Source of the DNA: a virus
Lineage: Duplodnaviria > Caudoviricetes
Length of the DNA: 59,537 bases
Virus record (IMG/VR): IMGVR_UViG_3300042154_002141
Location: 1 to 59,537 of that record
Direction: 5' to 3' (one strand)
Translations under genes and position numbers: made by a program
Notes under the pieces: model-generated
Database searches by the model: none
The model's input: only the letters and a program-made list of their open reading frames with translations
Told to the model about the DNA's origin: nothing
In this document: positions 18,386 through 41,345 of the stretch, piece by piece
Numbering within the stretch: position 1 is the first letter of the stretch
How the letters are laid out: each line of letters starts with the position of its first letter

Positions 18386-18541
18386 GTGAGCGCAACGTAT
18401 AGTAAGAAGTCTCTAGAGGAGATCCTCCGCGAGGCTGTAAATACTCCGCGCTGTGTGTGTGGTTGTGGCCGATACTCTGCTGAGAATACTTTCTCTAGCC
18501 CTGAGTGCTTCAACCGTGAAGAAGAGGAAGTGATTTACTAA
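18386..18541 (+). CDS. Small Cys-rich protein ending EEEEVIY (51 aa), not in ORF track
   Basis: MSATYSKK..CVCGCGR..NREEEEVIY; TAATG coupling. Confidence 0.6.
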   Translation: MSATYSKKSLEEILREAVNTPRCVCGCGRYSAENTFSSPECFNREEEEVIY

Positions 18542-18759
18542 TGGGCTGGAGAAGTATGGAGGCGGACTGGGACAACGGAATCGCGTATTGCGGAGAGTGT
18601 GCGCGTGAGTTCAGTGCTGCAGATAGTGTCGTGGAGGGCGGGGCTGAAGATGCAATTTGCTCGGATGAGTGCTACGATAAATACATAGGTGGTCCTGTTG
18701 TAGTGAACACCTTTTATATTCCGGAAAACAATGGTGAGGAGCCAGACGTTGTCTACTAA
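18541..18759 (+). CDS. Zinc-finger protein ending GEEPDVVY
   Basis: CGEC..CSDEC; C-terminal tag. Confidence 0.65.
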   Translation: MGWRSMEADWDNGIAYCGECAREFSAADSVVEGGAEDAICSDECYDKYIGGPVVVNTFYIPENNGEEPDVVY

Positions 18760-19024
18760 AGAAACAGTGTCGTTGAAGATTGGGGATCGAATCGTCGACG
18801 TCCCTAAGTATCTAGATCTTCCTGTAAAAACTATGATGGTAATCCTTAAGGAAAAGGATCCTAACCAACAGTTCATGTTGTCTTTGGAGGCTCTGTGCGA
18901 GCAACTGGAGGAGGAGGACGTGGACGTGATTGACGGTATGTCTGCTAGTGAGGCGGTTGCTTTGGTTACTGAGTGGATGAGCAAGTCAACGGAGCGTGAT
19001 GGAGAGGAGCCAGAGATTGTCTAG
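18749..19024 (+). CDS. Hypothetical protein ending GEEPEIV
   Basis: TTG start 7 nt after GAGGAG. Confidence 0.6.
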   Translation: MSTKETVSLKIGDRIVDVPKYLDLPVKTMMVILKEKDPNQQFMLSLEALCEQLEEEDVDVIDGMSASEAVALVTEWMSKSTERDGEEPEIV

Positions 19025-19241
19025 GATTGCTGAGCACGCTATTGGTTCTAGTATCGGTATAGAGACTATCCCTTGGCCTAGGTGCAAGGTTTGCGATGGA
19101 GCTATCTATAAGGGGTTCAACGAGGACCGCGTTCGTAATGTCGCTACAGATGATGATGGAAAGCTCTACCACATCTTCGCGATTGACTGTATGCTGAGTC
19201 CTAGAGTTTTTAACAAAGAGGAGCCGGACATTGTTTATTGA
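19017..19241 (+). CDS. Hypothetical protein ending KEEPDIVY
   Basis: TTG start after GAGGAG; CKVC..H...C. Confidence 0.6.
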   Translation: MSRIAEHAIGSSIGIETIPWPRCKVCDGAIYKGFNEDRVRNVATDDDGKLYHIFAIDCMLSPRVFNKEEPDIVY

Positions 19242-19566
19242 GAGACCTTGGGGCGGCTACATGATTGTTTACAGTAGCCCTGAAGTTACCATGAAGATTC
19301 TCAAGGTGCTTCCTGGAAAGCGCCTGTCGCTGCAAACTCACGCTCTTCGTTCGGAAGAGTGGCGTCCGATTACTGGCGGGCTGTCAGCTCGCATAGGCGC
19401 TGGTATGTATGATTTGGTGGTTGGCAAAACCTATATCGTCGACGTCGGTATGGTTCATAGACTAATCAATGATGGGAGTGATGTTGGATATGTTGCGGAA
19501 ATCATAAAAGGTGTGTACCATGAAGAAGACATTGAAAGATTGGAAGATGACTATGGCAGATCTTGA
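19231..19566 (+). CDS. Cupin, mannose-6-phosphate isomerase type II C-terminal-like
   Basis: ERPWGGY, PGKRLSLQTH..RSEEW, HRL.N, EEDIERLEDDYGR. Confidence 0.8.
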   Translation: MFIERPWGGYMIVYSSPEVTMKILKVLPGKRLSLQTHALRSEEWRPITGGLSARIGAGMYDLVVGKTYIVDVGMVHRLINDGSDVGYVAEIIKGVYHEEDIERLEDDYGRS

Positions 19567-19849
19567 GTTTCGAGTTGGTGGGTTTCCTTTTGTGGCTAAG
19601 AACTACAAAGAGGACATTGAGCTGAACTTTGGTATGACGCGTTCGCTAGCTATGAGTGGTGGGGAGATTACGTTTTCTTTTCTGCCTTACATGCTTTCGG
19701 CTTTGAAGACTAAGCGTGACAAAGATGTTTTTAACTCGTTAGCGAATCCTGTGAAGCTTCGCGTAATCAAAGTTTGGTATGACGCCTGTAATGGTGTAGG
19801 TTTGTCGACGTCCCTAAATAATGGAGAAGAGCCTGACATTGTCTACTGA
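19553..19849 (+). CDS. Hypothetical protein ending GEEPDIVY
   Basis: ORF track, C-terminal tag. Confidence 0.6.
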   Translation: MADLEFRVGGFPFVAKNYKEDIELNFGMTRSLAMSGGEITFSFLPYMLSALKTKRDKDVFNSLANPVKLRVIKVWYDACNGVGLSTSLNNGEEPDIVY

Positions 19850-20084
19850 TTTACAGCTTGGGGATTACGCTGTCTTTAAAAACAGCCCTGACATACACAC
19901 CGCTGACGTCTATAAGGTTGTTCGTATCGTTACGAGTGGTTATGGCTTTAATATTGAGCGTGTAGTTATGGTTGCTTCGGAAGATGGAAAAGAGTACCCT
20001 GTGACTGATAATCAACTTATTCGAGTTGCTGGACCAGTGGTGAGTCATCTTAATCTTGGTGAGGAGCCAAATATTGTCTACTGA
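19839..20084 (+). CDS. Hypothetical protein ending GEEPNIVY
   Basis: TTG start within upstream tag codons. Confidence 0.6.
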   Translation: MSTDLQLGDYAVFKNSPDIHTADVYKVVRIVTSGYGFNIERVVMVASEDGKEYPVTDNQLIRVAGPVVSHLNLGEEPNIVY

Positions 20085-20361
20085 CATTAGAATCAATCAC
20101 AAGGGTATGGTTCTCTTTGCTAAGCCTCTGCTCGAACTGCAGGGGGAAACTGGTGGAGAGTATGTTCCTTACATAATCAAATACCGCGCTATGAATATAG
20201 CTGAGGATACGTTTGCTAGATACGCTCTCGTTAAGTCCACTGAATATACCTATCAAATGTTTGTGGACCTTGAGCCGCATGAACGTAGGGGTATCGTGGA
20301 GCGCTGGTTAGATGAATCTCTGATTCCTGGTAAATATGAGGAACCGGACATTGTCTACTGA
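20074..20361 (+). CDS. Hypothetical protein ending YEEPDIVY
   Basis: TTG start within upstream tag codons. Confidence 0.6.
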   Translation: MSTDIRINHKGMVLFAKPLLELQGETGGEYVPYIIKYRAMNIAEDTFARYALVKSTEYTYQMFVDLEPHERRGIVERWLDESLIPGKYEEPDIVY

Positions 20362-20689
20362 GCCTGAGTTTGGCATAGAGGATTACCCTGAGCCGGACTA
20401 CCGCTGCTTTAGATGTGGTGAAGATCTTTCGGATGAAGATGAAGAGACTTATAGTGAGTGGGCTGCAGTAGATACTGGTGAGCCTATCCTCCTACATAAT
20501 GAGGATTGCCTTGAGCCTCCTGCAATGTCGTTCTTTAGGACCTGTGAGTGCTGCGAGTCTGAGTTTGATTTGTCTGATCAGAGGTTTGTGGTGGGGGAGG
20601 GTAAGACTTGGTACTGCAGCGAAGGGTGTAAGATTAGACATGAACGTGTTTGTCTTATGAATGTTGAGGAACCTGATATTGTCTACTAA
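20351..20689 (+). CDS. Zinc-finger protein ending VEEPDIVY
   Basis: CFRC, CECC, CSEGC. Confidence 0.6.
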   Translation: MSTEPEFGIEDYPEPDYRCFRCGEDLSDEDEETYSEWAAVDTGEPILLHNEDCLEPPAMSFFRTCECCESEFDLSDQRFVVGEGKTWYCSEGCKIRHERVCLMNVEEPDIVY

Positions 20690-20858
20690 CTCCTTTGTCG
20701 GAAAAAAGGTTTCCATCGGACTTCGATATGTAATCGAGATGGGTGCAGCTGAGGGTGTAGTTATTGAGGAGAGTTCAATAGGGGTTCTTGTTCAGGTAAA
20801 ACGTAATACTGTGTTCTACCCGTGGACGTCCATTGTGTATCTTCGTATTGACGAATAA
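20679..20858 (+). CDS. Small Sm/SH3-like hypothetical protein
   Basis: TTG start; FYPWTSIVYL. Confidence 0.5.
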   Translation: MSTNSFVGKKVSIGLRYVIEMGAAEGVVIEESSIGVLVQVKRNTVFYPWTSIVYLRIDE

Positions 20859-20883
20859 CAAAACGCTGTGCTAGTATTGCGTT

Positions 20884-21579
20884 ATGGAAATCAAATACCG
20901 CAGTGACATGACCGTTAAGCTTGTGCAGAGCATGGCTTCGGACTCGGCAGTAACACTGGCTGCCCGCGTATCAACTGGTGCTGTGGAGAGCACTCCGGAA
21001 AAAGAAGCCGGACTAATCAACTACCTGATGCGAGATCGTCATGGTTCTCCGTTTGAACACAACGCTTTTACGTTCTACATTGAAGCTCCTATCTTCGTGT
21101 TCCGTGAGTTTATGCGTCACCGCATGGCTTCTTACAATGAGGAGAGTGGACGTTACAAGGAGCTGGAGCCTGTGTTCTACGTCCCTAACCTAGAACGTAA
21201 GTTGGTTCAAAAAGGTAAGCCAGGTGCTTACGAGTTTGAGCTTGGAGACATTAGTCAGTTGGCTACTGTTTATCGCTCAAGTTACAATGCGAACAAGGCT
21301 GCCTATGAGGAGTATCAGAAGATGTTGCACGCTGGTGTAGCCCGAGAGATTGCTCGTGGAGTTCTTCCTGTTGGTTTGTATTCTTCTATGTATGTAACTA
21401 TGAATGCTCGTGCTTTGATGAACTTCCTGTCGTTACGTACTACCCGTGAGGGAACGCACTTCCCTAGTTTCCCTCAGCGTGAAATCGAAATGGTTGCTGA
21501 GCAGATGGAGTGCCACTTCGCAGAGAAGATGCCTCTTACCTATGAAGCCTTCAACAAGAACGGACGCGTGGCACCATAA
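20884..21579 (+). CDS. thyX: FAD-dependent thymidylate synthase
   Basis: HGSPFEH, REFMRHRMASYNEESGRY, NARALMNFLSLR. Confidence 0.96.
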   Translation: MEIKYRSDMTVKLVQSMASDSAVTLAARVSTGAVESTPEKEAGLINYLMRDRHGSPFEHNAFTFYIEAPIFVFREFMRHRMASYNEESGRYKELEPVFYVPNLERKLVQKGKPGAYEFELGDISQLATVYRSSYNANKAAYEEYQKMLHAGVAREIARGVLPVGLYSSMYVTMNARALMNFLSLRTTREGTHFPSFPQREIEMVAEQMECHFAEKMPLTYEAFNKNGRVAP

Positions 21580-21770
21580 TGGATTCTTATGGCGTAGTTA
21601 CTATGGGGCCGTGGTTGTTCTCGATTCCGGGACTTCTTGTTTATCTTCTAGGGATCTTCATCATCTTGTTCTGGTCGCGTGACCGTGCTCTTTGGGAGTT
21701 CGTTATCTCCACTATTATGTTCAACGTTCTCTGGAACTTGCTTGGATTCGCTTTTGTTGTTCGTGCATAA
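21579..21770 (+). CDS. Small membrane protein
   Basis: Two hydrophobic helices; TAATG coupling. Confidence 0.55.
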   Translation: MDSYGVVTMGPWLFSIPGLLVYLLGIFIILFWSRDRALWEFVISTIMFNVLWNLLGFAFVVRA

Positions 21771-21941
21771 AACGACATATTTAGCAAACATTGTGATACA
21801 ATTTAGTTAGTGCGGGAGTTGTTGCCAGCACTAGCATGGACGTTATCAGCCATGTTTCTCCTTTCTGTCAAGAAAAGCCCCTCGAGAAATCGGGGGGTTT
21901 TTCGACTTGACAAACTATTTGTGTAGTGCTAATTTCTAACT

Positions 21942-22421
21942 ATGCAAACATTTCTACCTTTTATTGAGTTCAGTGAGTCAGCTAAGGCCCTGGACAGCAA
22001 GCGACTAAACAAGCAAATCCTTGAGGGATACCAGATCCTCAACGTCCTTAGTAATGACGACCCTCGCGCTGGATGGCGCAATCACCCTGCAGTAAAGATG
22101 TGGAGAGGTCACGAGGTGGCTCTATGGAACTATATCTTCGAGTGTGTTGAAGAGGCTGACCGCCGAGGCATCAAGACAGACAAGAACGTAGAGAACCTGC
22201 GAGCCTTGCGTGATCGTGCTGGTCACATGTGGGGCTATGGTCTTCCTGAGTGGTTTAGCAATGCAGAGGCTCTCAATCGTGTCGTTATGACGCACAGAGC
22301 CAACCTCTATAAGAAAGACCCTTACTTCTATGTGGACTTCTGTAATGCTGTGGAGGACGCGTGGAATGAGCCATGCTGCGAGAAGTGCAACTACTACTGG
22401 GTGACGCACGTTCCTGCCTAA
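21942..22421 (+). CDS. Pyrimidine-dimer DNA glycosylase/endonuclease V-like protein
   Basis: MQTFLP...LDSKRLNKQILE..GWRNHPAVKMWRGHE, HRANL.KKDP; upstream TTGACA. Confidence 0.8.
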   Translation: MQTFLPFIEFSESAKALDSKRLNKQILEGYQILNVLSNDDPRAGWRNHPAVKMWRGHEVALWNYIFECVEEADRRGIKTDKNVENLRALRDRAGHMWGYGLPEWFSNAEALNRVVMTHRANLYKKDPYFYVDFCNAVEDAWNEPCCEKCNYYWVTHVPA

Positions 22422-22440
22422 GATATGGTAGGATGGCGCT

Positions 22441-22947
22441 ATGAGAAACAAAACTACTGAAGTTGTTGCTGTCGACGTCCCTGAGATTATAAATCTGGGT
22501 GGAGATTCGTTCTTTGCAACTGTTGAAATCATCAAGACGGATGGTGGCTATAGTACTGAGTGGTGGGTGTCCGGTAACTTTGAGGGGGAGTTACTGGTTG
22601 TCGGCTCCCTGTGTGTGCCTGTGTGGGGTGAGACACTGGAAGATGCCAGTAAGAAGGTCGTACACTTACGGAAGACCGTTTTAGACCTGATTCTAAGCGT
22701 GTATGACGGGGGTGCAAAGGTGCATTCAACGCCTACAAAGAGCCTAAAGTTCGAGATTGCCAGACGTCATATCACTTACTATGTGGATTCTGGGGTGTTT
22801 GTCGGTGCTAAAGATCGTTTTGTGGCTGCTTACAGCCTTGCTCAGCAGTTCCGAGTCAAGGAAATCGCTCAACTACTCTCTGACATTCTTAATGTAAACG
22901 TGAGAACTGTCCACGACTGGATCTATCAAGCCCGCCAACGCGGGTAA
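22441..22947 (+). CDS. Hypothetical protein with C-terminal HTH
   Basis: LSDILNVNVRTVHDWIYQARQRG. Confidence 0.55.
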   Translation: MRNKTTEVVAVDVPEIINLGGDSFFATVEIIKTDGGYSTEWWVSGNFEGELLVVGSLCVPVWGETLEDASKKVVHLRKTVLDLILSVYDGGAKVHSTPTKSLKFEIARRHITYYVDSGVFVGAKDRFVAAYSLAQQFRVKEIAQLLSDILNVNVRTVHDWIYQARQRG

Positions 22948-23027
22948 AAGAAGCCCCCCTACCTCGAAAGGTGGGGGGTTCTCTCTACCGGCGTATTGTA
23001 TTATGTAATAATTACTTTTATTTCCGG

Positions 23028-23858
23028 TTAGCCTAGTTTGGCCCAGGTTGCAGCGTCAACAACGCCTGTCGCTGGGATTCCGTGCTTGGTTTGGTATGCC
23101 TTTAAAGCAGCCTGAGTCTTTGGACCAAATGCTCCGTCAGGGGCAACACCAATCTTCTTCTGGACTACCTTTACAGCAGTTCCCTTTGAGCCTACCTTTA
23201 GTATTTGCTTAGCAGTAGGGGCGGCAACTGGTGCAGCAACTACAGCCTCTGGCTTCACAATAGGGGCTTCCTTTGGAACTGCAACTGTTGGGATCTCTGG
23301 TACAGAGTGAGTTGGAGCGAGAGTTACTGGGGCATCTTCAGGGGTTTCCTTGCCTGCTTCGACGTGAGCTCTCTCAAACTCAATGACAGCCTTGCAGAAA
23401 GTCATTGGGTTGTAGTAGCCCTTACCATTGTGGAAGCCTGCCATTGGCTGACCCTTGATGTGTCCTGCCCAGATTTCCCAGTGGAGGTGCTTACCAGTTG
23501 CGAAACCGGTCATACCCATCTTGCCGATGATTGTGCCAGCTTCGACGCGCTGACCCTTCTTGACTTTGATTGAACCCTTGACCATGTGGAAGTAGGTCCA
23601 TGTGACCTTCTTGCCCATGACTGTTGATTGGACAATAACTGAATGTCCGCCTGATGTTGGTGAGTCGTTAGGCTTAACTGCAATTACTTTTCCGTCAGCC
23701 CATGCCTCTAGGTAGGTGGGTTCTCCACCCTTCCAGATGTCAACACCGTTGTGGTGCTTCTTTGTTTTCTTGATAGGGTGGACGCGCCAACCGAACGGGC
23801 TGGTTACCTTCCACGCCTTACCAGGTTTGCCGTCTACCGGCCACTGTGATTTTGCCAT
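23028..23858 (-). CDS. M23 peptidase with C-terminal peptidoglycan-binding domain (endolysin-like)
   Basis: TSPFGWR.HP, HNGVD, YFH, TG.ATGKHLHWE; DGAFGPKTQAALKAYQ. Confidence 0.88.
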   Translation of the reverse strand: MAKSQWPVDGKPGKAWKVTSPFGWRVHPIKKTKKHHNGVDIWKGGEPTYLEAWADGKVIAVKPNDSPTSGGHSVIVQSTVMGKKVTWTYFHMVKGSIKVKKGQRVEAGTIIGKMGMTGFATGKHLHWEIWAGHIKGQPMAGFHNGKGYYNPMTFCKAVIEFERAHVEAGKETPEDAPVTLAPTHSVPEIPTVAVPKEAPIVKPEAVVAAPVAAPTAKQILKVGSKGTAVKVVQKKIGVAPDGAFGPKTQAALKAYQTKHGIPATGVVDAATWAKLG

Positions 23859-23894
23859 TACTTATTCCTTCGAAGTGAATATGAGAGAGGTTCT

Positions 23895-24125
23895 CTACTT
23901 ACTAATTTTACTCTTGCTTGGGTTTAGTGATTCGATTGCAGTGGTTGCATAGGCAGTTCTGTAGTGCTTTTCATAGCCTGCTAGGTAGTTTTGGCAGAAC
24001 GTCATATCATAACGCTTGTCTTTGTTGGTACCCACATAGTCGCGCCAGCTCTTCGTTGCAAGTTTCTGGACATCGTACTTGTTTGGTTCGCTGTAGAACT
24101 TTAGATAAAGAAAGAAGCGTTTCAT
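23895..24125 (-). CDS. Hypothetical protein
   Basis: Coupled to upstream gene. Confidence 0.5.
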   Translation of the reverse strand: MKRFFLYLKFYSEPNKYDVQKLATKSWRDYVGTNKDKRYDMTFCQNYLAGYEKHYRTAYATTAIESLNPSKSKISK

Positions 24126-24310
24126 TAGTCTTCATCCTTGTCGCGACGTAGAGGGAACGTAAGAACCCAGACGCAAAGAGTTATCAGGATGAGGTTTCCT
24201 GTTAAATCTTTAGCAGAGCCTTCAAGTACGAGCCATGCGACTGCCATACCTAAAAGGGTCCAAGCCTGTTCGATTATGTCTTTAAATAGTCCCAGTAGAA
24301 ACTTCTTCAT
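24125..24310 (-). CDS. Small two-TM membrane protein (holin-like candidate)
   Basis: Two hydrophobic helices, upstream of endolysin. Confidence 0.5.
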   Translation of the reverse strand: MKKFLLGLFKDIIEQAWTLLGMAVAWLVLEGSAKDLTGNLILITLCVWVLTFPLRRDKDED

Positions 24311-24311
24311 A

Positions 24312-26984: not shown

Positions 26985-27061
26985 TGGGGAGAGTGCCTTC
27001 TGTATGCTCTCCCAAGCCCTTCAATTGTAGCAAATTCGGGGCGGGCTGACTTTATTTTGGG

Positions 27062-27316
27062 CTATGAAGCCATGTCGTACATCCATGTAAAGAGAGCTGC
27101 GCAGACAGAAATCAGAGATGCATAGAAGAAGATGTTGTATGTGTATGGGGTGGTGAGGGCAAAATAAAGAGTGGTGACTGTAATAATGGACGTCAGTATT
27201 GTGGTTGCTTTGGTATTTTTGGTTAGGTGTTGGATGGCATATCCGAGAGTCAGAGGCCAAAAAATAGATAATAAAACGATCCAAATTGCGATTGGCATGA
27301 GTGACATGGTTAGCAT
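27062..27316 (-). CDS. Small membrane protein
   Basis: AGGAG RBS, three hydrophobic segments. Confidence 0.55.
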   Translation of the reverse strand: MLTMSLMPIAIWIVLLSIFWPLTLGYAIQHLTKNTKATTILTSIITVTTLYFALTTPYTYNIFFYASLISVCAALFTWMYDMAS

Positions 27317-32185: not shown

Positions 32186-32459
32186 CTCCAGGTAAAACTT
32201 TTAACGAACCTCATTCGATGTCCCGCCGCCGGGCCCGGATCCGGAAGGCGACATCAACTTTTAACGAACGATGTCCCGCCGACGGGTGAAGGCGGATCCG
32301 GCGGAAACTTTTAACGAAGATTCGTGCGAAGCTCGCAGCTTGACTGACGAGTCACGGCATGCAAAAACTTGCAGGCGTGCAACCGTTGCTAATATTTGAA
32401 CCGCTCGAGATGATAGAATCGAGACAGCGGCCTGCTATAGGGCCAGGAAAGGTTAACCG

Positions 32460-32711
32460 ATGGACTTCGAGGCATGGCTACAGATTGGTATTGATAACGG
32501 ATGGGCTGGCCCGCCAGTATGTGAAACGCATGACGGCATGCCTATGACCCAGGATGAGGAAACCGCGTTCGAAGATGGCGAGGACCCATGCGTCCACATC
32601 CTACGTCTGTATGAGGACCCTGAAGCCAAGGCGAGTATCGAAGCTAACCACTCGGCCAGTGTATGGCGTGCCACGAACCGTGGCTTGTCTTTGGGAGACA
32701 CAGGCCTGTAA
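32460..32711 (+). CDS. Hypothetical phage protein
   Basis: GAAAGG RBS; W...G...GW..PPVC.THDG. Confidence 0.55.
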   Translation: MDFEAWLQIGIDNGWAGPPVCETHDGMPMTQDEETAFEDGEDPCVHILRLYEDPEAKASIEANHSASVWRATNRGLSLGDTGL

Positions 32712-32747
32712 CCGCGCCTAAAATAGGCAACCGCTAGATGTTTTAAG

Positions 32748-32984
32748 ATGTTACGTATGGAACACTTCGAAGTACATCTGCTCACGAGCGACATTGACAT
32801 TACCCACGCCATCACTGCTGGTCTCCTTGAACCTGAAGAGAAACTTCAGTGCGAGAACTGCGAAGAGGTGGTCGGCTCTGACCTTGACGAGTTCTATCCA
32901 TTTGCTGTTGTCCTATCTGCTGATGAAGTTTGGTTTGTATGTGATGAGTGTTACACGCCTGTCATAGACCCACAAGGCTTTTAG
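32748..32984 (+). CDS. Small zinc-finger protein
   Basis: CENC..CDEC. Confidence 0.5.
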   Translation: MLRMEHFEVHLLTSDIDITHAITAGLLEPEEKLQCENCEEVVGSDLDEFYPFAVVLSADEVWFVCDECYTPVIDPQGF

Positions 32985-33056
32985 GCGTATCGTTACCATT
33001 TCGTTATAAACACTTTTCACGAACTTTCGTAATAACTTGCCAAATGTCGGTGGCGT

Positions 33057-33662
33057 GTGCTTTACTTCTCTTATGGCACTTTTACGAGAGGACACACCAT
33101 TCACACAATCCAAATAATTCTGGTCGAGGCAGACAGCCCAGAGGAGGCGTTTCGAGAAATCGAGATGACCTTAGAAAACGACCACACCCCCGCTTGGTCT
33201 GATTGGCACAATGCCAGCGACTACGCAAGTATGAACTTCGCTGGGCGTTGGTCTGGTCAGGTTTTCATCACACCAGAGCAAGAGGCTCTTATTGAGGCTG
33301 GCACTCTGGACAAGGACACCATTCCTAACTACCTCTGCTACGCAGACAATCCCGAACTTGCTGACTATGTAATGGACAGGTTTCTCGGCTATCGCAAACA
33401 GGCTATGCGTGAGTGCGTTCCAGCAGTAGGTATTCCAGACCTATCAACTTTGGTTGATGAATACAACCCAGCAGGTGTTCCATTCCTTGCTCACGATTTC
33501 TGGAAACTAGGAAAACTAATCGAACTGCTCGGTGATGATTGGAACTATGAGAGTGCTATCTATGACTTATCTTCTTGGACAGCCTCACTTCGCGACTACC
33601 ACGAACGCTGTGCGAAGAACCCACAAAAGCAATACCTAATCCCTGTTGATTTCCACCACTAA
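33057..33662 (+). CDS. Hypothetical phage protein
   Basis: WSDW..AGRWSG..VDFH; start uncertain. Confidence 0.6.
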   Translation: MLYFSYGTFTRGHTIHTIQIILVEADSPEEAFREIEMTLENDHTPAWSDWHNASDYASMNFAGRWSGQVFITPEQEALIEAGTLDKDTIPNYLCYADNPELADYVMDRFLGYRKQAMRECVPAVGIPDLSTLVDEYNPAGVPFLAHDFWKLGKLIELLGDDWNYESAIYDLSSWTASLRDYHERCAKNPQKQYLIPVDFHH

Positions 33663-33742
33663 AAAAATAAATCAAAATAAACTTGACACGAACTTTCAAC
33701 GAGAGTAATGTCAGTAATGTCAGACAAACGAAAGGACAAACA

Positions 33743-34231
33743 ATGTCAGACCACGCAAACCTAATCGGCAAGGCACTCTACCTTGAATTCCGCAAAGGTG
33801 TAAACACAGCACAAATCGTTATCACGCCAGAGGGCTTTGACAGCGAGGGGAACTATGTTCCTGTATCAACTTGGCGTAGGCAGATTTCTACTTGGTCGCC
33901 TAAAAAGCCTTGGAAATGCTACACAGCACCAAACGAGGCTACGCTCTCGGAACGCAAGGAACAGAATGTCGGCAAGGTAGTTCCACTACCAGAGGGTATT
34001 GACCCAGAGCCAATGGCACAGGAAATGATTGTCGAATTGACAAAGACCCTGAACAACCTCCACAATAACAAGTGGGAACTTTACAAAGCCCCAATCGTTC
34101 TGGAATTCTCTATGGAGGACTTGCTGAACACTAAGGAATGGGAAACTCCCTCGGCTCTGGTTCGTAGAATAATGCGAGCAAGAAAAGAACTAGGTTTCCC
34201 AGATGAACTACTAAACGAAAACGCAGAGTAG
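33743..34231 (+). CDS. Hypothetical protein
   Basis: GAAAGGA RBS, TTGACA at 33683. Confidence 0.65.
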   Translation: MSDHANLIGKALYLEFRKGVNTAQIVITPEGFDSEGNYVPVSTWRRQISTWSPKKPWKCYTAPNEATLSERKEQNVGKVVPLPEGIDPEPMAQEMIVELTKTLNNLHNNKWELYKAPIVLEFSMEDLLNTKEWETPSALVRRIMRARKELGFPDELLNENAE

Positions 34232-34243
34232 AGAGGACAAACA

Positions 34244-35284
34244 ATGACTACTGCGAATTACACAGAAATCGAGTTCGAGGAACTCAACACCAAAGACAGA
34301 ATTTCGACCTCTGATAGAATGTTTGAGGGTCTAGGCGACCTGATTGTATCTATCGCTGGTCAGGGTCTTAGCGAAAAGTTCGCTACCAACCCAGCCCTTG
34401 ACACCTACTTTCCCAACGCTGGCAAACTGACCAAGCGTGGGGCAGGAACGAAAGAGGAAACTGCTGTGGAAACAGAGGCACTCGTTGGCGAGGGAACTTA
34501 CATTCGCCCGAATGGAGTGGCGTATCACGCTCGCAAGTGGGGGTCTACTGACAACGCTGATGTTGAGGTGTTGCGAATGGCTCGCTCGAAGAAACTTTAC
34601 ACCTTGCTTTATGGTAGTCCGGGCTGTGGCAAAACTGCTCTGGTCGAGGCGGCTTTTGGTGAGGACTTGTTCACTATCCTCGGCTCTGGCGACACAGAAT
34701 TAGCAGACTTCATTGGTGGCTATGTTCAGACACCAAGTGGCGGTTTCGAGTGGGTAGACGGAGATTTGGTAAAAGCGGCTGAACAGGGTCGCCCACTACT
34801 GATTGACGAGATTGGTCTGATTGACACTAAGGTTCTCTCGGCTCTCTATGGCTTGATAGATGGTCGTGGCGAAATCACAATCACGCAAAACCCAGAGCGA
34901 GGGCTGGTCAAAGCCCAAGAGGGTTTCTTCGTGATTGGTGCTACCAATCCAAACGCACCTGGCGTTCGCTTGTCCGAGGCTCTGCTATCTCGTTTCATCA
35001 TTCAGGCTGAAATGACGACAGACTATGGACTAGCCAAAAAACTTGGTATCCCTGCTATGGCTATCACAGCCTCGCTCAACCTCGCAAAAAAGCAACAAGA
35101 GGGTCAAATCTCTTGGTCGCCTCAAATGCGAGAGTTGGAGGGTTTCCGAGATAACGCAAACACCTTTGGCACTAAGTTCGCAATCGAGAACTTGCTCGCC
35201 TCCTCACCTGAAAATGACAGGGCAGTAGTCGCTGAAACATTTACCAGAGTGTTTGGCGAGGAGTGCCGACCAGCCAAAATCTAG
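34244..35284 (+). CDS. MoxR/CbbQ-type AAA+ ATPase
   Basis: GSPGCGKT Walker A, LLIDEI Walker B, GATNP, SEALLSRF. Confidence 0.9.
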   Translation: MTTANYTEIEFEELNTKDRISTSDRMFEGLGDLIVSIAGQGLSEKFATNPALDTYFPNAGKLTKRGAGTKEETAVETEALVGEGTYIRPNGVAYHARKWGSTDNADVEVLRMARSKKLYTLLYGSPGCGKTALVEAAFGEDLFTILGSGDTELADFIGGYVQTPSGGFEWVDGDLVKAAEQGRPLLIDEIGLIDTKVLSALYGLIDGRGEITITQNPERGLVKAQEGFFVIGATNPNAPGVRLSEALLSRFIIQAEMTTDYGLAKKLGIPAMAITASLNLAKKQQEGQISWSPQMRELEGFRDNANTFGTKFAIENLLASSPENDRAVVAETFTRVFGEECRPAKI

Positions 35285-35414
35285 TTATTTGTCCAACTAG
35301 ATTTTGTTGAGAGGGAGGGTAGTTCCCCCACTACCCTCCCTCGTTTTTTATCAGACTTGACAAACAAATCAAATCTGGTAACTTGGACTTAGACGACAAA
35401 CGAGAGGAAAACAA

Positions 35415-37226
35415 ATGTCGCACTTCGGAACTAGCAAAACAGCAGTAAAGAACACTCCTAGCGAGTGGCTCAAAGTTGGCTCACAGGTTGGGCAACTTGT
35501 AAACAAGTGGGCTGAACGAAACGACCTAGTGGTTTATGTTGGTGAGGTTATGTCTGCCCCAGCCCCAGCCCTATTCGACCCACGCACAGCAGAAATCGAA
35601 GTCAATACCAAAGTGGCTTTCGGGGTTACTGAACCAGAAATCATTGGCGACCTGAACGATAGGGAAATGATGTTCGAGTTCCCAAGAGCCACAGGTGCTA
35701 TCCTCCACGAAGCCTTACACGCTCGGTTCACTCAATGGGATTTGATGAAGTCCAACGAAGATTTGACCAGAGGGCAGAATGAGGCACTCCACTTGTTAGA
35801 GGAGGGTCGCATTGAGGCTATGGGCGTTTTGACTTTCCCGAAGAACAGAGTGTTCCTCCGAGCCTGTGCTATGGAAATCGTTATCGCTGACCTCAACCCA
35901 GACGACCTCGGACTACACAGCACCACGCGAGCCTGTGCCAAAATCGCAGGGCTGGTCGGGGCAAGAATTGATGCTGGCGTTTTGGAACTTTCTGATGTAG
36001 CAGATGTGATTGACCTAGTGAAGTTCAACCTCGGTGAAGAACTTTATGGGCAACTACGCACTATCTGGCGTAAGGCTCAAAACTACACAATCCACAACAA
36101 CGCTGAACCTCTTTACCAACTTGCTATCGAGTGGGATAAGTTGGTCGAGGACAAAGCCAAAGAGAATGGCGAGGGCGAGGGCGAGGGCGAGGGTGGCGAG
36201 GGTGGCTGTGGTTTCCCAATGCCCCAAGAGATGATTGACAAAATCAAAGAGGCTCTCGAAAATGGTGCGGAGGAAACAGGTTTCCAAGTTGTCGTTGAGA
36301 TTGGCGACCAGCAACAAGACGAACGCTGGGAGAACGAAGTCAAGGAAAAGTCCAACGACAGCAAACGCCGAGATGAAAACAAGAAAGAGGCTAACAAGAC
36401 CTTTGCCAAGAACTCTGGTGCTGGTGAAACCTCCTCCTCCTCAAAACTTTCCGAAGTTCGCAAGCCAACCTCGGTTGAGCGAGTAGCCTCGGTCAAGGTC
36501 GCCCAGATGTTAGAAAAGGCAAAGTATCGCGAGCGTGATGTAACTATCGTTCGCTCGGTCTTGCCACAGGGTCGCTTGAAGTCGAGGGCATTGGTTCAGG
36601 CACAGGCTCTCAAATCAAAAGGTATCCACACGCAGGTCGAGGCGTGGGAACACAAAACTCGCAAGCACACAGACGAGCCAACCTTGTCCATTGGAGTAAT
36701 GGTAGACATTTCAGGCTCAATGGGTGGGGCTATGACACCAATGGCGATTACAGCGTGGGTGCTGGCAAACGCTGGTCGGCGTATCCAAGCCTCAACTGCT
36801 ATGGTCTACTTCGGCTCTGGCGTATTCCCAACGCTTAGAAAAGGTGAGCCACTTGATGAAGTCAGGGTCTACACAGCCCCAGACGGAACAGAGAAGTTCG
36901 ACCAAGCGTTCCGAGCCATTGACGGACACCTCAACTTGCTAGACGGAAAAGGTGCGAGGTTGCTGGTAATCGTTTCTGACGGACACTACGCAGGGTCAGA
37001 GCCAAGCCACGCTAAGAAGTGGATTGCCGAGTGCGACAGACTTGGCGTGGCGGTTCTCTGGCTGACTTTCGACAACAGCACCTCACAGGTCGAAAACTAC
37101 TTCGGGGCTGGCAGTTCGGCTCACGCTGTTTCGCTATCTGGCAAGTCGGTTGAGCAATCGGCAATCCTGATTGGTGAGGCTGGGGCAAAGGCTCTCGAAA
37201 GCATTGGTAAGCGAAACGCTTACTGA
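35415..37226 (+). CDS. vWA-domain protein with N-terminal HExxH domain (MoxR partner)
   Basis: HEALH, LEEGRIE, GE-rich linker, MIDAS DISGS, VSDG. Confidence 0.85.
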   Translation: MSHFGTSKTAVKNTPSEWLKVGSQVGQLVNKWAERNDLVVYVGEVMSAPAPALFDPRTAEIEVNTKVAFGVTEPEIIGDLNDREMMFEFPRATGAILHEALHARFTQWDLMKSNEDLTRGQNEALHLLEEGRIEAMGVLTFPKNRVFLRACAMEIVIADLNPDDLGLHSTTRACAKIAGLVGARIDAGVLELSDVADVIDLVKFNLGEELYGQLRTIWRKAQNYTIHNNAEPLYQLAIEWDKLVEDKAKENGEGEGEGEGGEGGCGFPMPQEMIDKIKEALENGAEETGFQVVVEIGDQQQDERWENEVKEKSNDSKRRDENKKEANKTFAKNSGAGETSSSSKLSEVRKPTSVERVASVKVAQMLEKAKYRERDVTIVRSVLPQGRLKSRALVQAQALKSKGIHTQVEAWEHKTRKHTDEPTLSIGVMVDISGSMGGAMTPMAITAWVLANAGRRIQASTAMVYFGSGVFPTLRKGEPLDEVRVYTAPDGTEKFDQAFRAIDGHLNLLDGKGARLLVIVSDGHYAGSEPSHAKKWIAECDRLGVAVLWLTFDNSTSQVENYFGAGSSAHAVSLSGKSVEQSAILIGEAGAKALESIGKRNAY

Positions 37227-37336
37227 CCAAACTTGGGGGAGGGCAAATTCCTCTCTGCCCTCCTCCAAAATCCAACTTGACACGAAGTTTCGTTGGAACT
37301 AACATTGAGGTATAGCCAAACGAAAGGACAAACGAA

Positions 37337-38077
37337 ATGGCAAACTATGTAAGCAATTGGTTTGGTGTCAGCGGTAGCACCGAGGACATTCAGGCTTTTA
37401 TGGCTAAGGCTGGAAAGCCTTACTCCCAGAAATGGTCGAACAGCGACAAAGAAGAAGTTATGGATTGCGGATTTGCTTTCTGGAACTTCGTGCGACCACC
37501 AGAGGAGGACTTGGACTACTACTATGGTCGCAAGCAAGAGGAAAAGCCAAAGGGCTATGAGAAGTGGTCAGACGAAAAGCAGTTGGCTTGGCGAATGTCT
37601 TTCTCTGGCAAGAACGCCTCCGATTGGAACTATCGCAATTGGGGCATTAGCCACGACATTTGGGAACTGACCAACCCAGCCGAGATTGAGATTTCTGATG
37701 ACGGAAAAACTGCCAGCGTGAACTACTCGTTCGAGAGCAAGTGGTCTATCCCAGAGCAGGGATTTAGGGCTATTACTGAACAGCACCCAGAGTTGTCATT
37801 CGACTTCGAGGGCGAAGAAGAACAGGGCTGGGGGGCTACCTACTCTGGTGTCGAGGGTGAGTTCACTATTACGGAAACTTGGGACATACCAGACAGCCAC
37901 GAAGATAACGCCAAGCGTGATAGAACTTGCCAATGCGAGTGGTCAGAAGATGAACCTCACGATTGGTATGACGATTGCCCAGACAAGGCACTCGAAATCA
38001 AGCGACACCACCTCGAATACGGCTATGACGGCTGTGAGTGCGAGGGTGCTGTCGAAGAACCAGATGTGGTCTACTAA
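37337..38077 (+). CDS. DUF1281/YubB ferredoxin-like protein ending VEEPDVVY
   Basis: MANYVSN, DWNYRNWG, FESKWSIP, HPELSF. Confidence 0.7.
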   Translation: MANYVSNWFGVSGSTEDIQAFMAKAGKPYSQKWSNSDKEEVMDCGFAFWNFVRPPEEDLDYYYGRKQEEKPKGYEKWSDEKQLAWRMSFSGKNASDWNYRNWGISHDIWELTNPAEIEISDDGKTASVNYSFESKWSIPEQGFRAITEQHPELSFDFEGEEEQGWGATYSGVEGEFTITETWDIPDSHEDNAKRDRTCQCEWSEDEPHDWYDDCPDKALEIKRHHLEYGYDGCECEGAVEEPDVVY

Positions 38078-38394
38078 TGAGTTACACAGCAAAAGACCTG
38101 ATTGACAGGCTATCAAAAATGCCACCAGACACTCTGCTCTGGTGGGCTTACGCTGGCAAAGATGATGTTAGCGAATACTTCGTTGAGGGCTGTGAAATCT
38201 CTGATGATGATTTCACGAAGTTCATAAATGAATTTAGTGGCGATTGGGAGTATGTAGTCGAAACGCTGGCGGATTGCGTGGACGGAGAGTTCCTATGCGA
38301 CAAGTGTGGGCTGTATGACTACAAAGCCCAAGACCTAGACAAACGAGGGTTTATTTGCTCGAAGTGCGGAGAAGAAAAAGAAATCGTTTACTAA
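38077..38394 (+). CDS. Zinc-finger paralog 1 ending GEEKEIVY
   Basis: CDKC..CSKC; TAATG coupling. Confidence 0.65.
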   Translation: MSYTAKDLIDRLSKMPPDTLLWWAYAGKDDVSEYFVEGCEISDDDFTKFINEFSGDWEYVVETLADCVDGEFLCDKCGLYDYKAQDLDKRGFICSKCGEEKEIVY

Positions 38395-38431
38395 ACTTGA
38401 CACGAAGTTCGTTAGAACTTAGGATTTAGGT

Positions 38432-38857
38432 ATGGACAGAAAAATCTACGAAGAACCAGACTTGGTTACGCCCCCAATAATGTATTCGGGCTATCGCAAC
38501 TATGACATAAACATCTGGTCGCTCGAAAGCGGAGTGCTGAACATCACAGCGTATCAACTATCGGTTGATAAAGACGACCCAGAGGAAGTCCTCGGCACAG
38601 ATTACAGCGCAGAGTATTTCACAGAGAACTTTTACCCCGATAAAGAGGCAGACTACAAAATGATTGACTACCTGCTCTGCTACAAACTCGGTATGCCAGA
38701 TTGGTTAGCAATAGGCGACCTAGACGAGTGGACTACCTACTTGGGCAACACCTCCGACTATGTGAACGACCTAGTGAACAAAAGCGGTGGGATTGCCCCA
38801 AGAAAGTTAGTCGAATGGCTTGACAGCCTCCCTGCTTATGAACCAAACTTGATTTAG
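38432..38857 (+). CDS. Hypothetical protein ending YEPNLI
   Basis: ORF track; TTGACA upstream. Confidence 0.6.
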   Translation: MDRKIYEEPDLVTPPIMYSGYRNYDINIWSLESGVLNITAYQLSVDKDDPEEVLGTDYSAEYFTENFYPDKEADYKMIDYLLCYKLGMPDWLAIGDLDEWTTYLGNTSDYVNDLVNKSGGIAPRKLVEWLDSLPAYEPNLI

Positions 38858-38867
38858 AGAGGACAAA

Positions 38868-39215
38868 ATGAAAGTTAGCAAAGTTTTAGAGGCACTCTCT
38901 GGGTTAGACCCAGAAGATGAAATCATCATCACTTGGTTTGACCGCCGAGATGTGGAGAGCAGTTTCTACGGAGGCGGGTTTGACGCTCGTTTCAAAATCA
39001 AAGACGAGCATTGGGCGACAATCGCTACTGCTGTCGAAAATCGAAGTAGGATTTACGAGGGCTATTACGAGGACTTCTCGGACAGCGTTTATGATGTAAT
39101 GTCGGGCTATAAGTGCGAACAATGCGACACTCTCGACTACGAACTCAAAAACGCTGGCGACACAGGCGAGAACATCTGTAAGGGCTGTGGCGAAGAAGAA
39201 GATGAGGTCTACTAA
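38868..39215 (+). CDS. Zinc-finger paralog 2 ending GEEEDEVY
   Basis: CEQC..CKGC. Confidence 0.65.
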   Translation: MKVSKVLEALSGLDPEDEIIITWFDRRDVESSFYGGGFDARFKIKDEHWATIATAVENRSRIYEGYYEDFSDSVYDVMSGYKCEQCDTLDYELKNAGDTGENICKGCGEEEDEVY

Positions 39216-39562
39216 TGGCTGTTTACACGAATAAGTGGCTCGCGGACTATTTCGCAAGGAAAGACCCTGACGAGCAGGTTTTCGCAATCATCTACGACAA
39301 AGACGAGGTTGCTGAACTCCACAACGGAGATGTGGAGGACTTCGAGATAAAAGACGAAGATTGGTTGAAAGTTATTGACGGAATGGACACCGACTATCTG
39401 GCCGACATTACGCAGGACACTTTCAGAAGTTCGCTACACGACACTCTCGTAAAGTTCAAATGTCAAGATTGCTTTGGTTATGACTACAATGCCAAAGAAA
39501 AAGACAAGGGAGAGAAAGTCTGCGTGTCTTGTTCAGGCGAAGAAAAAGAAATCGTTTACTAA
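39215..39562 (+). CDS. Zinc-finger paralog 3 ending GEEKEIVY
   Basis: CQDC..CVSC. Confidence 0.65.
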   Translation: MAVYTNKWLADYFARKDPDEQVFAIIYDKDEVAELHNGDVEDFEIKDEDWLKVIDGMDTDYLADITQDTFRSSLHDTLVKFKCQDCFGYDYNAKEKDKGEKVCVSCSGEEKEIVY

Positions 39563-39622
39563 ACTTGACAAGCACCACCAAAAGACTAGACTTGGATTAG
39601 ACCCAGAGAAAGGACAAACAAA

Positions 39623-39934
39623 ATGGGCGACAGAGCAAGTATCTACATCACTTCGGAACAATTCGAAAAACCAATCCACCTCTACGGGCATTGGTCAGGC
39701 GAAGATAACATCAAGGCAGTTGAGGAAGTGCTAACTCACACAGACCGAGTTGGCGACCCCTCTTACTTGACAGCACAGATTTTCCACAAGTTCGCTGAAC
39801 TCGGCAACTACACAGGCAACCTCGGTTTCGGGATTAGCGTTGCCAGCGACATTGACTACGCTGACGACAACCCACCTGTCATTGTCAATGCCGATACCGG
39901 TGCGATTGAGTATGAGCCGAGGGAGGTCGAGTAG
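39623..39934 (+). CDS. Hypothetical phage protein
   Basis: MGDRA..LYGHWSG..DPSYLTA; GAAAGGA RBS. Confidence 0.65.
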   Translation: MGDRASIYITSEQFEKPIHLYGHWSGEDNIKAVEEVLTHTDRVGDPSYLTAQIFHKFAELGNYTGNLGFGISVASDIDYADDNPPVIVNADTGAIEYEPREVE

Positions 39935-40356
39935 TGGCTCTCATTGAGAACCTTAGTGCCTATGGCACAGACCTCGACCAGCAAGACGCTATTTTTTACA
40001 CAAGCGGTGATGTAGAGGTTGTCTGGAAATCTGACGATTGCGACTTCTATGTTGTCGCCTGTGGCGATACTCGAATACTTCTCGTAGACGAGGAGGGCAA
40101 AGAACACGACATTAGGCAACCAGCCGACTTAGAGGAGGCAGGTATCAAAAGCGACACCGACCTCAAACGACTAGCCGACAAAGACCTAATAACTTGGTAT
40201 AACAATCCTTGGTTCGAGGTTTACTCGGACACCGACCTCGATTATTACTCCGAGCCAATCTTTGAACTAGACGAGGCAGTTGCTTTTGCGTATGCTCAAC
40301 AAGAGGAACGCAATAAGCCAGACCTCAACCCAGAAGAACCAAACCTTATTTACTAG
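39934..40356 (+). CDS. Hypothetical protein ending PEEPNLIY
   Basis: NNPWFE motif; TAGTG coupling. Confidence 0.65.
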   Translation: MALIENLSAYGTDLDQQDAIFYTSGDVEVVWKSDDCDFYVVACGDTRILLVDEEGKEHDIRQPADLEEAGIKSDTDLKRLADKDLITWYNNPWFEVYSDTDLDYYSEPIFELDEAVAFAYAQQEERNKPDLNPEEPNLIY

Positions 40357-40358
40357 GA

Positions 40359-40649
40359 GTGAAAATGAAATTCAACCACGCAATCGGAGAAATCATAAAA
40401 GAAATCCGCACCGAGGAGAAAATGCTAACGCTACGCCAACTTTCAACGAAGTCGTCTGTGGCTCTTGGTTACATCTCGGAAGTCGAGCGAGGGCAGAAAG
40501 AAGGTTCGTCAGAAATCTTGGAGTGCCTAGCAAAAGCGTTAGATTACGACCTATGCGACTTAGTTATTTTGGCGGGCTGGAGAATGAAAATGCGAGCGAC
40601 AGAATTCGACAAAAAGTTCCTTCTTGACTTGGAACTCCAAAACAAGTAG
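40359..40649 (+). CDS. XRE-family HTH regulator, ClgR-like
   Basis: IGEIIKEIR..TLRQLS..VALGYISEVERGQKEGSSEIL..AL. Confidence 0.8.
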   Translation: MKMKFNHAIGEIIKEIRTEEKMLTLRQLSTKSSVALGYISEVERGQKEGSSEILECLAKALDYDLCDLVILAGWRMKMRATEFDKKFLLDLELQNK

Positions 40650-40670
40650 ACTTTCAGTAGAAAGGTAAAA

Positions 40671-40940
40671 ATGACCAACTACGCAATCTACGACACCAAC
40701 ACCGATAACATCACGCTCATTGAGGTTCTACCAAGCCTCAAAAAAGCACTCGAACTTCTAAACGAGCAGACCTCCGCAGAACTACGAGTGTTCCGAGCAA
40801 TCACAGAAACACAAATCAAATCACTATGCTACTCCGAGGCTGTGGCTGTGGAAACCAAATTCCGTAGCGAACGCCAAGAAGTAGTCCAAATGATTTCAGA
40901 AACCAAACTAACCAAGCACCAACGCCGATACGGAAAGTAG
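40671..40940 (+). CDS. Hypothetical protein
   Basis: GAAAGG RBS, TTGACT-TAGACT upstream. Confidence 0.6.
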   Translation: MTNYAIYDTNTDNITLIEVLPSLKKALELLNEQTSAELRVFRAITETQIKSLCYSEAVAVETKFRSERQEVVQMISETKLTKHQRRYGK

Positions 40941-40946
40941 GACAAA

Positions 40947-41345
40947 ATGGCAAAAATCACAATCACAGGTCTAGTAGCGACCACACCACGACACATAGTA
41001 ACCGCAGAGGGATTACCAATAACTTCATTCCGAGTAGCGGAAACCGAGGGCTACACCAGCAACGCTGACGGAAAATACAAGGAACACACGAATTGGTATA
41101 CAATCACTTCGTTCCGTCAGTTGGCTATCAACACCGCAGGTTCTATCCACAAAGGCGAGCGTGTATCTCTAACAGGAAGTATCGTTATCCGAGATTGGGA
41201 TAACGGAGAGCGAGCAGGAACTTCTGTCGAGATTGAGGCAGACAGCATTTCACACGACCTAGCGTGGGGAAACTCCTCATTCACTCGTAATGTCTTGGTT
41301 CGTGAAAAGCCAAGTGCGTTAGAGCCAGAACCAGAAATCGTGTAA
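40947..41345 (+). CDS. ssb: Single-stranded DNA-binding protein (short, ends EPEPEIV)
   Basis: ITGLVATTPRH, SFRVA, TNWYTI..FRQLA.N..SI.KG, W...G..VEIEADSI.HDL.WG. Confidence 0.85.
   Translation: MAKITITGLVATTPRHIVTAEGLPITSFRVAETEGYTSNADGKYKEHTNWYTITSFRQLAINTAGSIHKGERVSLTGSIVIRDWDNGERAGTSVEIEADSISHDLAWGNSSFTRNVLVREKPSALEPEPEIV

Follow-up and report, generated by a model that had tools for sequence, protein, structure and literature searches.

A recurrent C-terminal heptapeptide on small accessory proteins of lake-water phages, and multiple use of the DNA that encodes it

The stretch of phage DNA analysed here (the window) is the complete IMG/VR record IMGVR_UViG_3300042154_002141 (Duplodnaviria; Caudoviricetes; 59,537 bases; completeness estimate 36%). 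It contains two groups of small genes, cluster A (18.4-20.7 kb) and cluster B (C-terminal ends between 38077 and 41345), in which variants of one short tail recur at the C-terminal end of the encoded proteins. The tail and the stop codon that follows it occupy 24 nucleotides (nt) and are together called the tag below. The window also encodes a class Ib-type ribonucleotide reductase, an MT-A70 methylase, a pyrimidine-dimer glycosylase, a WhiB-helix-turn-helix fusion, a binding protein for single-stranded DNA (SSB), lysis enzymes and a T4-type large terminase. The WhiB family points to an actinobacterial host and, since the phages of the tag carriers encode WhiB, the host is probably an actinobacterium. 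Sequencing runs containing window DNA are of metagenome DNA labelled lake water or freshwater, with no RNA run among those found, and megablast of positions 17000-41900 against deposited phages gave zero matches. Synteny with a related record, G001, spans 29.7-59 kb of the window.

All tags lie on the + strand. In cluster A the first (EEEEVIY, 18518-18541) ends a Cys-rich open reading frame (ORF) of 51 amino acids (aa; 18386-18541), and the next ATG overlaps its stop (TAATG). The following ORF (18541-18759) ends in EEPDVVY (18736-18759), where GAGGAG is followed, 7 nt on, by a TTG (18749) that opens the ORF ending at 19024. That ORF (18749-19024) has a Y-less end, EEPEIV with TAG at the place of the Tyr codon (19004-19024), and TTG 19017 opens the ORF ending at 19241. 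The latter (19017-19241) ends in EEPDIVY (19218-19241), and TTG 19231 is the first start codon of an untagged cupin gene (19231-19566). EEPDIVY (19826-19849; ORF 19511-19849), EEPNIVY (20061-20084; ORF 19839-20084) and EEPDIVY (20338-20361; ORF 20074-20361) each contain a TTG that opens the following ORF (19839, 20074 and 20351, respectively). The last tag of the array (EEPDIVY, 20666-20689) ends the Cys-rich ORF 20351-20689 and contains TTG 20679, which opens the array’s last, untagged ORF (to 20858).

In cluster B, a 246-aa protein (37337-38077; weak DUF1281_C match) ends in EEPDVVY (38054-38077), with GAA GAA as Glu codons and no in-tag TTG, the next ATG overlapping the stop. ORF 38077-38394, of a zinc-ribbon paralogue family, ends in EEKEIVY (38371-38394) and is followed by a promoter-like site, with no overlapping gene. 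Its paralogues 38868-39215 and 39215-39562 end in EEEDEVY (39192-39215) and EEKEIVY (39539-39562), the latter again followed by a promoter-like site. ORF 38432-38857 carries a copy of the motif that is not C-terminal (EEPDLV at residues 7-12; 38450-38467), kept in G001, and ends in a weak Y-less variant, YEPNLI (38837-38857), for which the G001 orthologue has YEPRKV. ORF 39934-40356 ends in EEPNLIY (40333-40356), and the SSB (40947-41345; Pfam SSB, E 2.7e-15) ends in EPEPEIV, a Y-less relative of the tag. All 15 C-terminal ends that had been named in an earlier reading of this DNA from its letters alone (the sequence-only reading) are present at the positions it gave.

A six-frame search of the window with a strict peptide pattern (E-[EP]-[PKE]-[DEN]-[ILVE]-[VI]-Y) gave 12 matches, all on the + strand and all with a stop immediately after; the looser core EE[PKE][DEN][ILV][VI] additionally matches the Y-less end at 19024 and the non-terminal copy at 38450-38467. 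At the DNA level, GARGARCCNRAYRTTGTYTAYTRA with up to three mismatches has eight matches in the window (0.01 expected), and the codon-degenerate GARGARNNNRANNTNRTNTAYTRR, in which third positions are free, has 11 (0.00 expected; reached in none of 100 shuffles). GARGARNNNRANNTNRTNTAYTRR is absent from 36 of 38 MoxR-related and 44 of 48 ThyX-related phage records, and these 80 records (5.32 Mb; 13 of them at least 90% complete) serve as the tag-less control. The stricter GARGARCCNRAYRTNGTNTAYTRA, with Pro fixed at position 3, found only five single matches in a prokaryote genome collection, all in ORFs of less than 40 aa. Arrays of five pattern matches each are present in the related records G002 and G005 (completeness estimate of G005, 71%), where a looser peptide search yields more tags, and 11 metagenome contigs have arrays of 3-6 tags; the exact array consensus, searched in IMG/VR, gave zero matches. 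Over the 76 tags collected, all of which abut a stop, residue counts by position are E 69, E 75, P 57, D/N/E 75, I/V/L 74, V/I/L 76 and Y 76. The motif is thus real, far above chance and restricted to a narrow phage lineage, given 11 matches against 0 expected in the window and the zero background in 80 relatives, and the carriers come from a narrow clade of lake-water phages.

The 76 tagged ORFs (at least 40 aa; 17 sources) fall into 23 clusters by BLASTP (E 1e-3, first and last eight residues trimmed). In the window the 12 strict carriers form ten families, because the ORFs ending at 38394, 39215 and 39562 are paralogues. About half of the carrier families have a CxxC...CSxxC zinc-ribbon pattern and the remainder have no Cys pattern; judging by that pattern, the former may be remote kin. 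The sequence-only reading had called the protein bodies unrelated, which fits the ten families and has to be qualified for the three paralogues and for the possible kinship of about half of the families. Apart from the SSB (40947-41345), Pfam and PHROGs searches of the carriers and lineage-specific neighbours gave nothing above threshold; sub-threshold matches to FCS-type zinc fingers were seen on carriers (zf-FLZ, E 0.04; zf-FCS, E 0.003). An AlphaFold2 model of the zinc-ribbon paralogue family has a mean predicted local distance difference test score of 61.5, at which level the tail is unreadable. Carriers are located among DNA-metabolism, early-looking genes (WhiB, ThyX, SSB), behind sigma-70-like promoter matches and outside the structural module. 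By sequence the motif is a C-terminal short linear motif, [G/V/K/R]-E-E-P-[D/N/E]-[I/V/L]-[V/I]-Y-stop, carried by at least 23 families of putative small accessory proteins.

Two further observations concern these and neighbouring families. Tag-less relatives of the 246-aa protein (37337-38077; relatives in G006, G007 and G011) extend about 100 residues past a conserved DDCP; the tagged forms stop early, and the distance at which the tag is attached differs between the window (G000 in record comparisons) and G001 on the one hand and G002 and G005 on the other. A second paralogue family (44980-45429, 45601-46116 and 50415-50831), found in the tag-bearing subclade only, has the common end G-[IL]-C-x-x-C-x-[ED]-x-E.

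Comparison among relatives indicates that the tail is under selection as a peptide. In 29 tags from five records, nine codons are used at position 5 and six at position 6, together with both Tyr codons and all three stops. In the 30 of 76 tags that have no overlapping start, the Glu codons are mostly GAA GAA, nine and seven codons occur at positions 5 and 6, and the peptide is kept. G001 orthologues keep the tail with conservative changes (D/N, I/L/V): the bodies of window ORF 39934-40356 and its G001 counterpart are 41% identical, with synonymous differences per synonymous site (pS) of 0.80, whereas the tails read EEPNLIY in the window and EEPDVVY in G001. The first array gene of G005 and that of G002 (52% identical; pS 0.92) both end in EEEDIVY. 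The ratio of nonsynonymous to synonymous substitution rates (dN/dS) of carriers is 0-0.41 in 10 of 12 pairs, those with computable dS, so the carriers are real coding genes. Among relatives, third positions differ and one stop codon may replace another, but reading frame, termination and motif are preserved, which argues for selection on the peptide. This bears out two claims of the sequence-only reading, that codons vary synonymously (seen in the window and across the tags of relatives) and that a free C-terminal peptide is selected (the tail being kept through codon changes and at 41-52% body identity); the outcome that would have refuted the latter, homologues keeping the nucleotides but losing frame or stop, is not what the relatives show. 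In cluster A the tag nucleotides are nearly fixed, and part of this conservation is not driven by the peptide, because the tag DNA there also serves as putative ribosome-binding site and TTG start of the next, overlapping gene and as exchange breakpoint.

The first two of these additional roles concern the next gene. A TTG within the tag is the first codon of an ORF of 48 aa or more at 14 junctions (seven in the window, three in G005 and four in G002). Counted back from the last base of the stop, this TTG is at a distance of 10 nt (7 nt at 19024); at 10 of the 14 it is the sole start codon between -14 and +15, and in the array tags a Shine-Dalgarno-like GAGGAG precedes it by 7 nt. The TTG is formed from the Ile/Val-Val codons (ATT GTC), so that the next gene overlaps by 11 nt, and in four arrays it is replaced by an ATG three nt further upstream, built from the Asn/Asp-Val codons. 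Each array gene would thereby carry the translation start of its neighbour. At least one GAG is present in the Glu-Glu codons (GAGGAG, GAAGAG or GAGGAA) at 14/14 TTG junctions and at 2/15 other tags (Fisher p 1.8e-6), in the window alone at 7/7 and 0/6 (p 0.0006), tests that overstate independence because many tags are orthologues; over all sources the counts are 44 of 46 tags with an overlapping start and 10 of 30 others. The cupin gene (19231-19566), which matches Pfam MannoseP_isomer from its fourth residue, has the in-tag TTG as its start in the window and likewise in contig L212, where a different gene lies upstream of it. The recurrent M-S-T start of array genes comes from the Val-Tyr-stop codons read in another frame. 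The position of GAGGAG, the anatomy of the junctions and the codon bias suggest use of the TTG as start, and the latter two point to dual coding of the tail and the next start.

Recurrent gene ends of other kinds were also seen. Three adjacent genes of G008 (90402-91042, - strand) end in ENK, the GGAGAGAACAAGTGA-type start site of each next gene overlapping the last codons; this is a clear start-site-driven C-terminal recurrence, in contrast to the tag. In G006 and G011 (e.g. G006:68579-75093, + strand) a 16-nt repeat, CAGAAAAAATAAATAC, in five and four copies in gene gaps, is the source of spurious ‘QKK’ ends of ORFs; its likely location is opposite a promoter or terminator of minus-strand genes. 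In G005 (10183-20878, + strand) a repeat about 35 nt long occurs four times opposite genes; it reads ‘FLIE[LI]LIL[ILV]Y’ up to a stop, with TTGTTTTA coming next, and is a DNA element, not a tag. Among other recurrent C-terminal tripeptides in 147 scanned sources, only DNA repeats or start-site overlaps were found and no further tags.

The tag also coincides with the borders of gene exchange. Contig L193 matches the window with 92% identity starting 7 nt upstream of the 19826 tag; farther upstream it has no DNA match. In the arrays of G005, G002 and contig L197 the alignment breaks all fall within tags, and the alignment pieces overlap there by 10-23 nt of tag sequence, which fits exchange between direct repeats. 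One array slot is empty in G005 and is filled by a gene of 48 aa in G002 and by a larger, unrelated one in L197, and the bodies of the window’s cluster A proteins have no tblastn match (E 1e-4) in G002 or G005, despite the same tags. By such comparison, single-gene insertions, deletions and replacements between related phages begin and end in tags, and the tag is thus also where cassettes are joined in exchange. Reads of four metagenome runs gave short contigs with two joints, one contig each and neither at a tag, and were not used.

The SSB suggests what the tail may do. Without its Tyr, the tag equals the tip of these phages’ own SSB, which ends in EPEPEIV in the window and in EEPTIV or EEPAIV in G005 and G002. 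In 13 of 57 MoxR-related loci, tag-less phages included, SSB tips are EPEPE[ILM]V, EPE[DE]ELV, EPVDELV or EEP[AT]IV. The zinc-ribbon family with EEKEIVY in the window has EEKEVV or EEEEVV as its end in two sister records (G071 and G072), where the SSB ends in PEPEMV, another family in EPALV and the 246-aa family in EEAQIIY plus Q. Because the tag minus Tyr equals the SSB tip, and because Y-less tails occur in the sister lineage, the tagged proteins may use the partner of the SSB tip. Only 40947-41345 matches Pfam SSB, the other carriers having no match above cut-off or weak zinc-finger matches; the carriers are therefore not SSBs, and the proposal is that the tail works like an SSB tip. Phyletic profiling for a reader gene among the tag-bearing records gave no candidate that stands out, as all of them belong to a single subclade whose private genes number in the dozens. 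Other ends of docking type in the window are DPETPPF, of a 90-aa ORF (52622-52894), and DDDWDF, of the ribonucleotide reductase small subunit (8909-9865); the former resembles the actinobacterial SSB tip.

In the explanation proposed here, a lineage-specific motif selected as a peptide is encoded by 24 nt that are used three times over, and forms a docking tail akin to the SSB tip. The tail would be a flexible docking peptide whose hydrophobic/aromatic end and carboxylate, with an acidic flank, plug into one common partner, putatively the one that reads the SSB tip. As a whole this explanation has about an even chance of being right, and the broader suggestion of the sequence-only reading, that the tail is an addressing signal, is plausible.

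Several points weigh against it. Entropies at the three codon positions (0.64, 0.31 and 1.34 bits) are partly circular as a measure of peptide selection because the tag set was chosen with the peptide pattern; two arguments escape this circularity, namely the degenerate pattern’s zero background and the comparison of orthologues. Constraints on array DNA (start site and recombination joint) could alone be sufficient for much of the conservation, and at several junctions in-frame start codons lie 15-18 nt upstream of the TTG, 5′ of GAGGAG. For a tip of SSB type the terminal carboxylate has to be free and its register is fixed, and with the additional Tyr the carboxylate is one residue out of step with that of the phage SSB; the likeness may also reflect only a generic acidic-then-hydrophobic make-up. 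Lastly, the motif had been said always to abut the stop, which is true of all 12 strict window matches and fails in relatives with trailing residues (EQDVVY+GGEA, EQDVVY+GSAK, EPDLLY+GNEA and EEAQIIY+Q) and for the N-terminal copy at 38450-38467, and some members of one paralogue family end in DLL plus one or two residues in place of the tail.

A bolder version makes the 24-nt module a three-in-one cassette connector, the terminal Tyr being perhaps a removable cap. A gene recombining into the array at a tag would gain, in one step, an address tail for the common hub that reads the SSB tip, would supply its neighbour with a ribosome-binding site and a start codon, and would leave a new joint for the next exchange. 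Loss of the Tyr, as in tubulin detyrosination, would turn EEPDIVY into the SSB-type EEPDIV; the array member that ends without Tyr at 19024 and the similarly Y-less sister-lineage tails would then represent the uncapped state. This version is rather unlikely. If true, it would amount to a phage ‘plug-and-play’ system for accessory genes.

The genes upstream of cluster B bear on a different role, that of a degradation or processing signal. An AAA+ ATPase (34244-35284; Pfam AAA_5, E 5e-19) and a 603-aa protein (35415-37226) are encoded on the + strand at 34244-37226. In the 603-aa protein a DxSGS motif is invariant, an HExxH motif (H98, E99, H102) is invariant in nine of nine homologues, and a match to VWA_CoxE is sub-threshold (19 bits; cut-off 26.4). 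It looks, from these motifs, like a metallopeptidase-like domain fused to a von Willebrand factor A (vWA) domain. The sequence-only reading had identified a MoxR-vWA pair here and had put it forward as a candidate reader of the tail. The MoxR assignment stands on the AAA_5 match and the vWA assignment leans on the sub-threshold match and DxSGS. As reader, the pair finds no support, since it is present in all 38 MoxR-related records, of which 36 have no tag (six of these at least 90% complete), so that tag and pair are not co-distributed. The same distribution counts against the tag as a signal that times removal or activation of its carriers, either by host Clp, Lon or proteasome or by the phage HExxH/vWA protein with the MoxR ATPase. 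A signal of this kind would suit the C-terminal location, the many small accessory proteins that look short-lived, the adjacency of the HExxH/DxSGS protein to an AAA+ ATPase and the location of cluster B directly downstream of the pair. It is nevertheless an unlikely explanation, as the SSB, a stable and abundant protein, has the Y-less form, and the known bacterial C-terminal degrons have non-polar ends with no acidic run.

Quite unlikely, in turn, is a gene connector acting only at the DNA or RNA level (ribosome-binding site, start and recombination joint), of which the peptide would be a functionless by-product. GAGGAG and an in-frame TTG within array tags, and cassette insertions and deletions that begin and end in tags, are what such a connector would give, and these phages do yield C-terminal recurrences from start overlap, e.g. 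the three ENK ends of G008 at GGAGAGAACAAGTGA-type junctions. Among described elements, the closest at the DNA level is found in cluster K mycobacteriophages: their start-associated sequence (SAS), described in excerpts of PMC3203893 as a 13-bp GGGATAGGAGCCC containing AGGAG, 3-7 bp before the starts of non-structural genes of different families, in a single orientation, lineage-specific and with no function assigned in those excerpts; it has the same AGGAGCC core. Array tags likewise hold GAGGAGCC 7 nt before the TTG, within the 3-7 bp spacing of SAS. However, SAS is a fixed 13-bp word, whereas only the GAGGAGCC core is found here, the Glu-Glu codons vary between GAG and GAA and third positions vary; moreover, the tag is read through as peptide and persists in the 30 of 76 cases with no downstream start, where GAA GAA and varied Ile/Leu/Val codons leave the peptide intact. 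Several tags precede a promoter-like gap, tails persist on orthologues with saturated synonymous sites, and neither a ribosome-binding site nor a start codon needs Pro, Asp/Asn or Tyr.

A virion-loading signal is comparably improbable. The capsid targeting sequence (CTS) of phage T4 is N-terminal and directs proteins into the prohead core. Excerpts of PMC3012670 describe T4 internal proteins as diverse, with the CTS as their only common feature, and the carriers here are likewise diverse, fast-changing small proteins with only one short address tag in common; cassette content also varies between close relatives. Unlike the CTS, the phage tag is C-terminal; the SSB has a related tail, and the genes surrounding the carriers are early-looking ones and ones of DNA metabolism rather than those of the structural module. 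Slowing of termination by the nascent peptide, with re-initiation at the overlapping start (translational coupling), would suit the overlap with the following start seen in 46 of 76 tags. It is very unlikely, because tags are also found at the ends of genes that precede an intergenic promoter-like gap and some copies are non-terminal.

The docking tail preferred here has counterparts in other systems. The E. coli SSB tip (SSB-Ct) is DDDIPF (PMC5872125), and SSB tips dock many genome-maintenance partners (PMC10164576). Likenesses are the location at the extreme C-terminus, the acidic run followed by Ile, a small residue or Pro and a last aromatic residue (D-I-P-F and D-I-V-Y), the use of one peptide for many contacts, and the Y-less tag form at the end of these phages’ SSB. 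The difference is that SSB is one protein with many partners, whereas here one tail is on many unrelated non-SSB proteins, which have no OB (oligonucleotide/oligosaccharide-binding) fold or long linker and whose tails, with the additional Tyr, are out of register with the phage SSB. In phage T7 the acidic tails of gp2.5 (SSB) and gp4 (helicase-primase) bind basic patches of T7 DNA polymerase and share a site there, the gp2.5 tail binding the front basic patch and a DTDF peptide mimicking the gp4 tail (PMC12339929, in excerpts); titles in its reference list describe the C-terminal Phe as essential. There too, unrelated phage proteins have an acidic tail with an aromatic end for one hub, which is known in T7 and conjectural here. 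The T7 case, however, involves two proteins rather than at least 23 families, and the T7 tails have no fixed heptapeptide and no start-site role. The carriers belong to none of the SSB-Ct, T7-tail or T4 CTS families.

C-terminal peptides that serve docking have been described for individual hub proteins, SSB among them. Literature searches gave zero matches for the strings EEPDIVY, EEPDVVY and EEPNIVY, and nothing equivalent among the matches to searches on phage C-terminal linear motifs and hubs. In the literature searched, no heptapeptide spread over two dozen unrelated phage accessory families was found, nor a tag whose codons double as next start and exchange breakpoint; the triple use of the 24-nt module (tail, next start and exchange joint) is what is new here. 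Should one partner turn out to receive all carriers through the tail, this would provide a handle on the function of many ‘dark matter’ small phage proteins, and the connector would be a ready-made natural scheme for assembling and exchanging gene cassettes. For annotation, true starts in arrays would be TTG codons inside the upstream gene.

Other C-terminal motifs were compared with the tag. HbYX of proteasome activators (hydrophobic-Tyr-any residue, Tyr penultimate) is ruled out, as Tyr is last in 76 of 76 tags. MftA, the mycofactocin precursor, ends in Gly-Val-Tyr and is modified by a radical S-adenosylmethionine (SAM) enzyme, with this enzyme and a chaperone as neighbouring genes; no radical SAM match to Pfam was found among 54 scanned window proteins, in a record that is 36% complete. 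MftA, EEVD/TPR, EEY/CAP-Gly, PDZ ligands, clamp-binding/PIP motifs and the FtsZ C-terminal peptide were set aside on pattern alone.

Promoter-like sites accompany both clusters as consensus matches only. TTGACA-17-TAGGAT (38397-38425, + strand) directly follows a tagged gene, and akin to it are 18226-18255, 37277-37305 and 39565-39592. Across 37277-41579 (+ strand), TTGAC[AT]-16/17-TA[GA][GA]NT recurs in the gaps before the genes at 37337, 38432, 39623, 40671 and 41586, and in the G002 and G005 arrays TTGACA lies directly 3′ of the first tagged gene. The non-terminal EEPDLV (38450-38467) sits just after such a site; a fused junction of which it is a remnant would be one possible origin, a leaderless start another. 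Upstream of cluster A, a tRNA-like gene (17900-17971, + strand; Rfam tRNA, 51.2 bits; gathering score 29) has UGU in the anticodon loop and two non-standard pairs in the T arm; ARAGORN made no call there, and in lake metagenomes contigs from many other organisms pile up on it.

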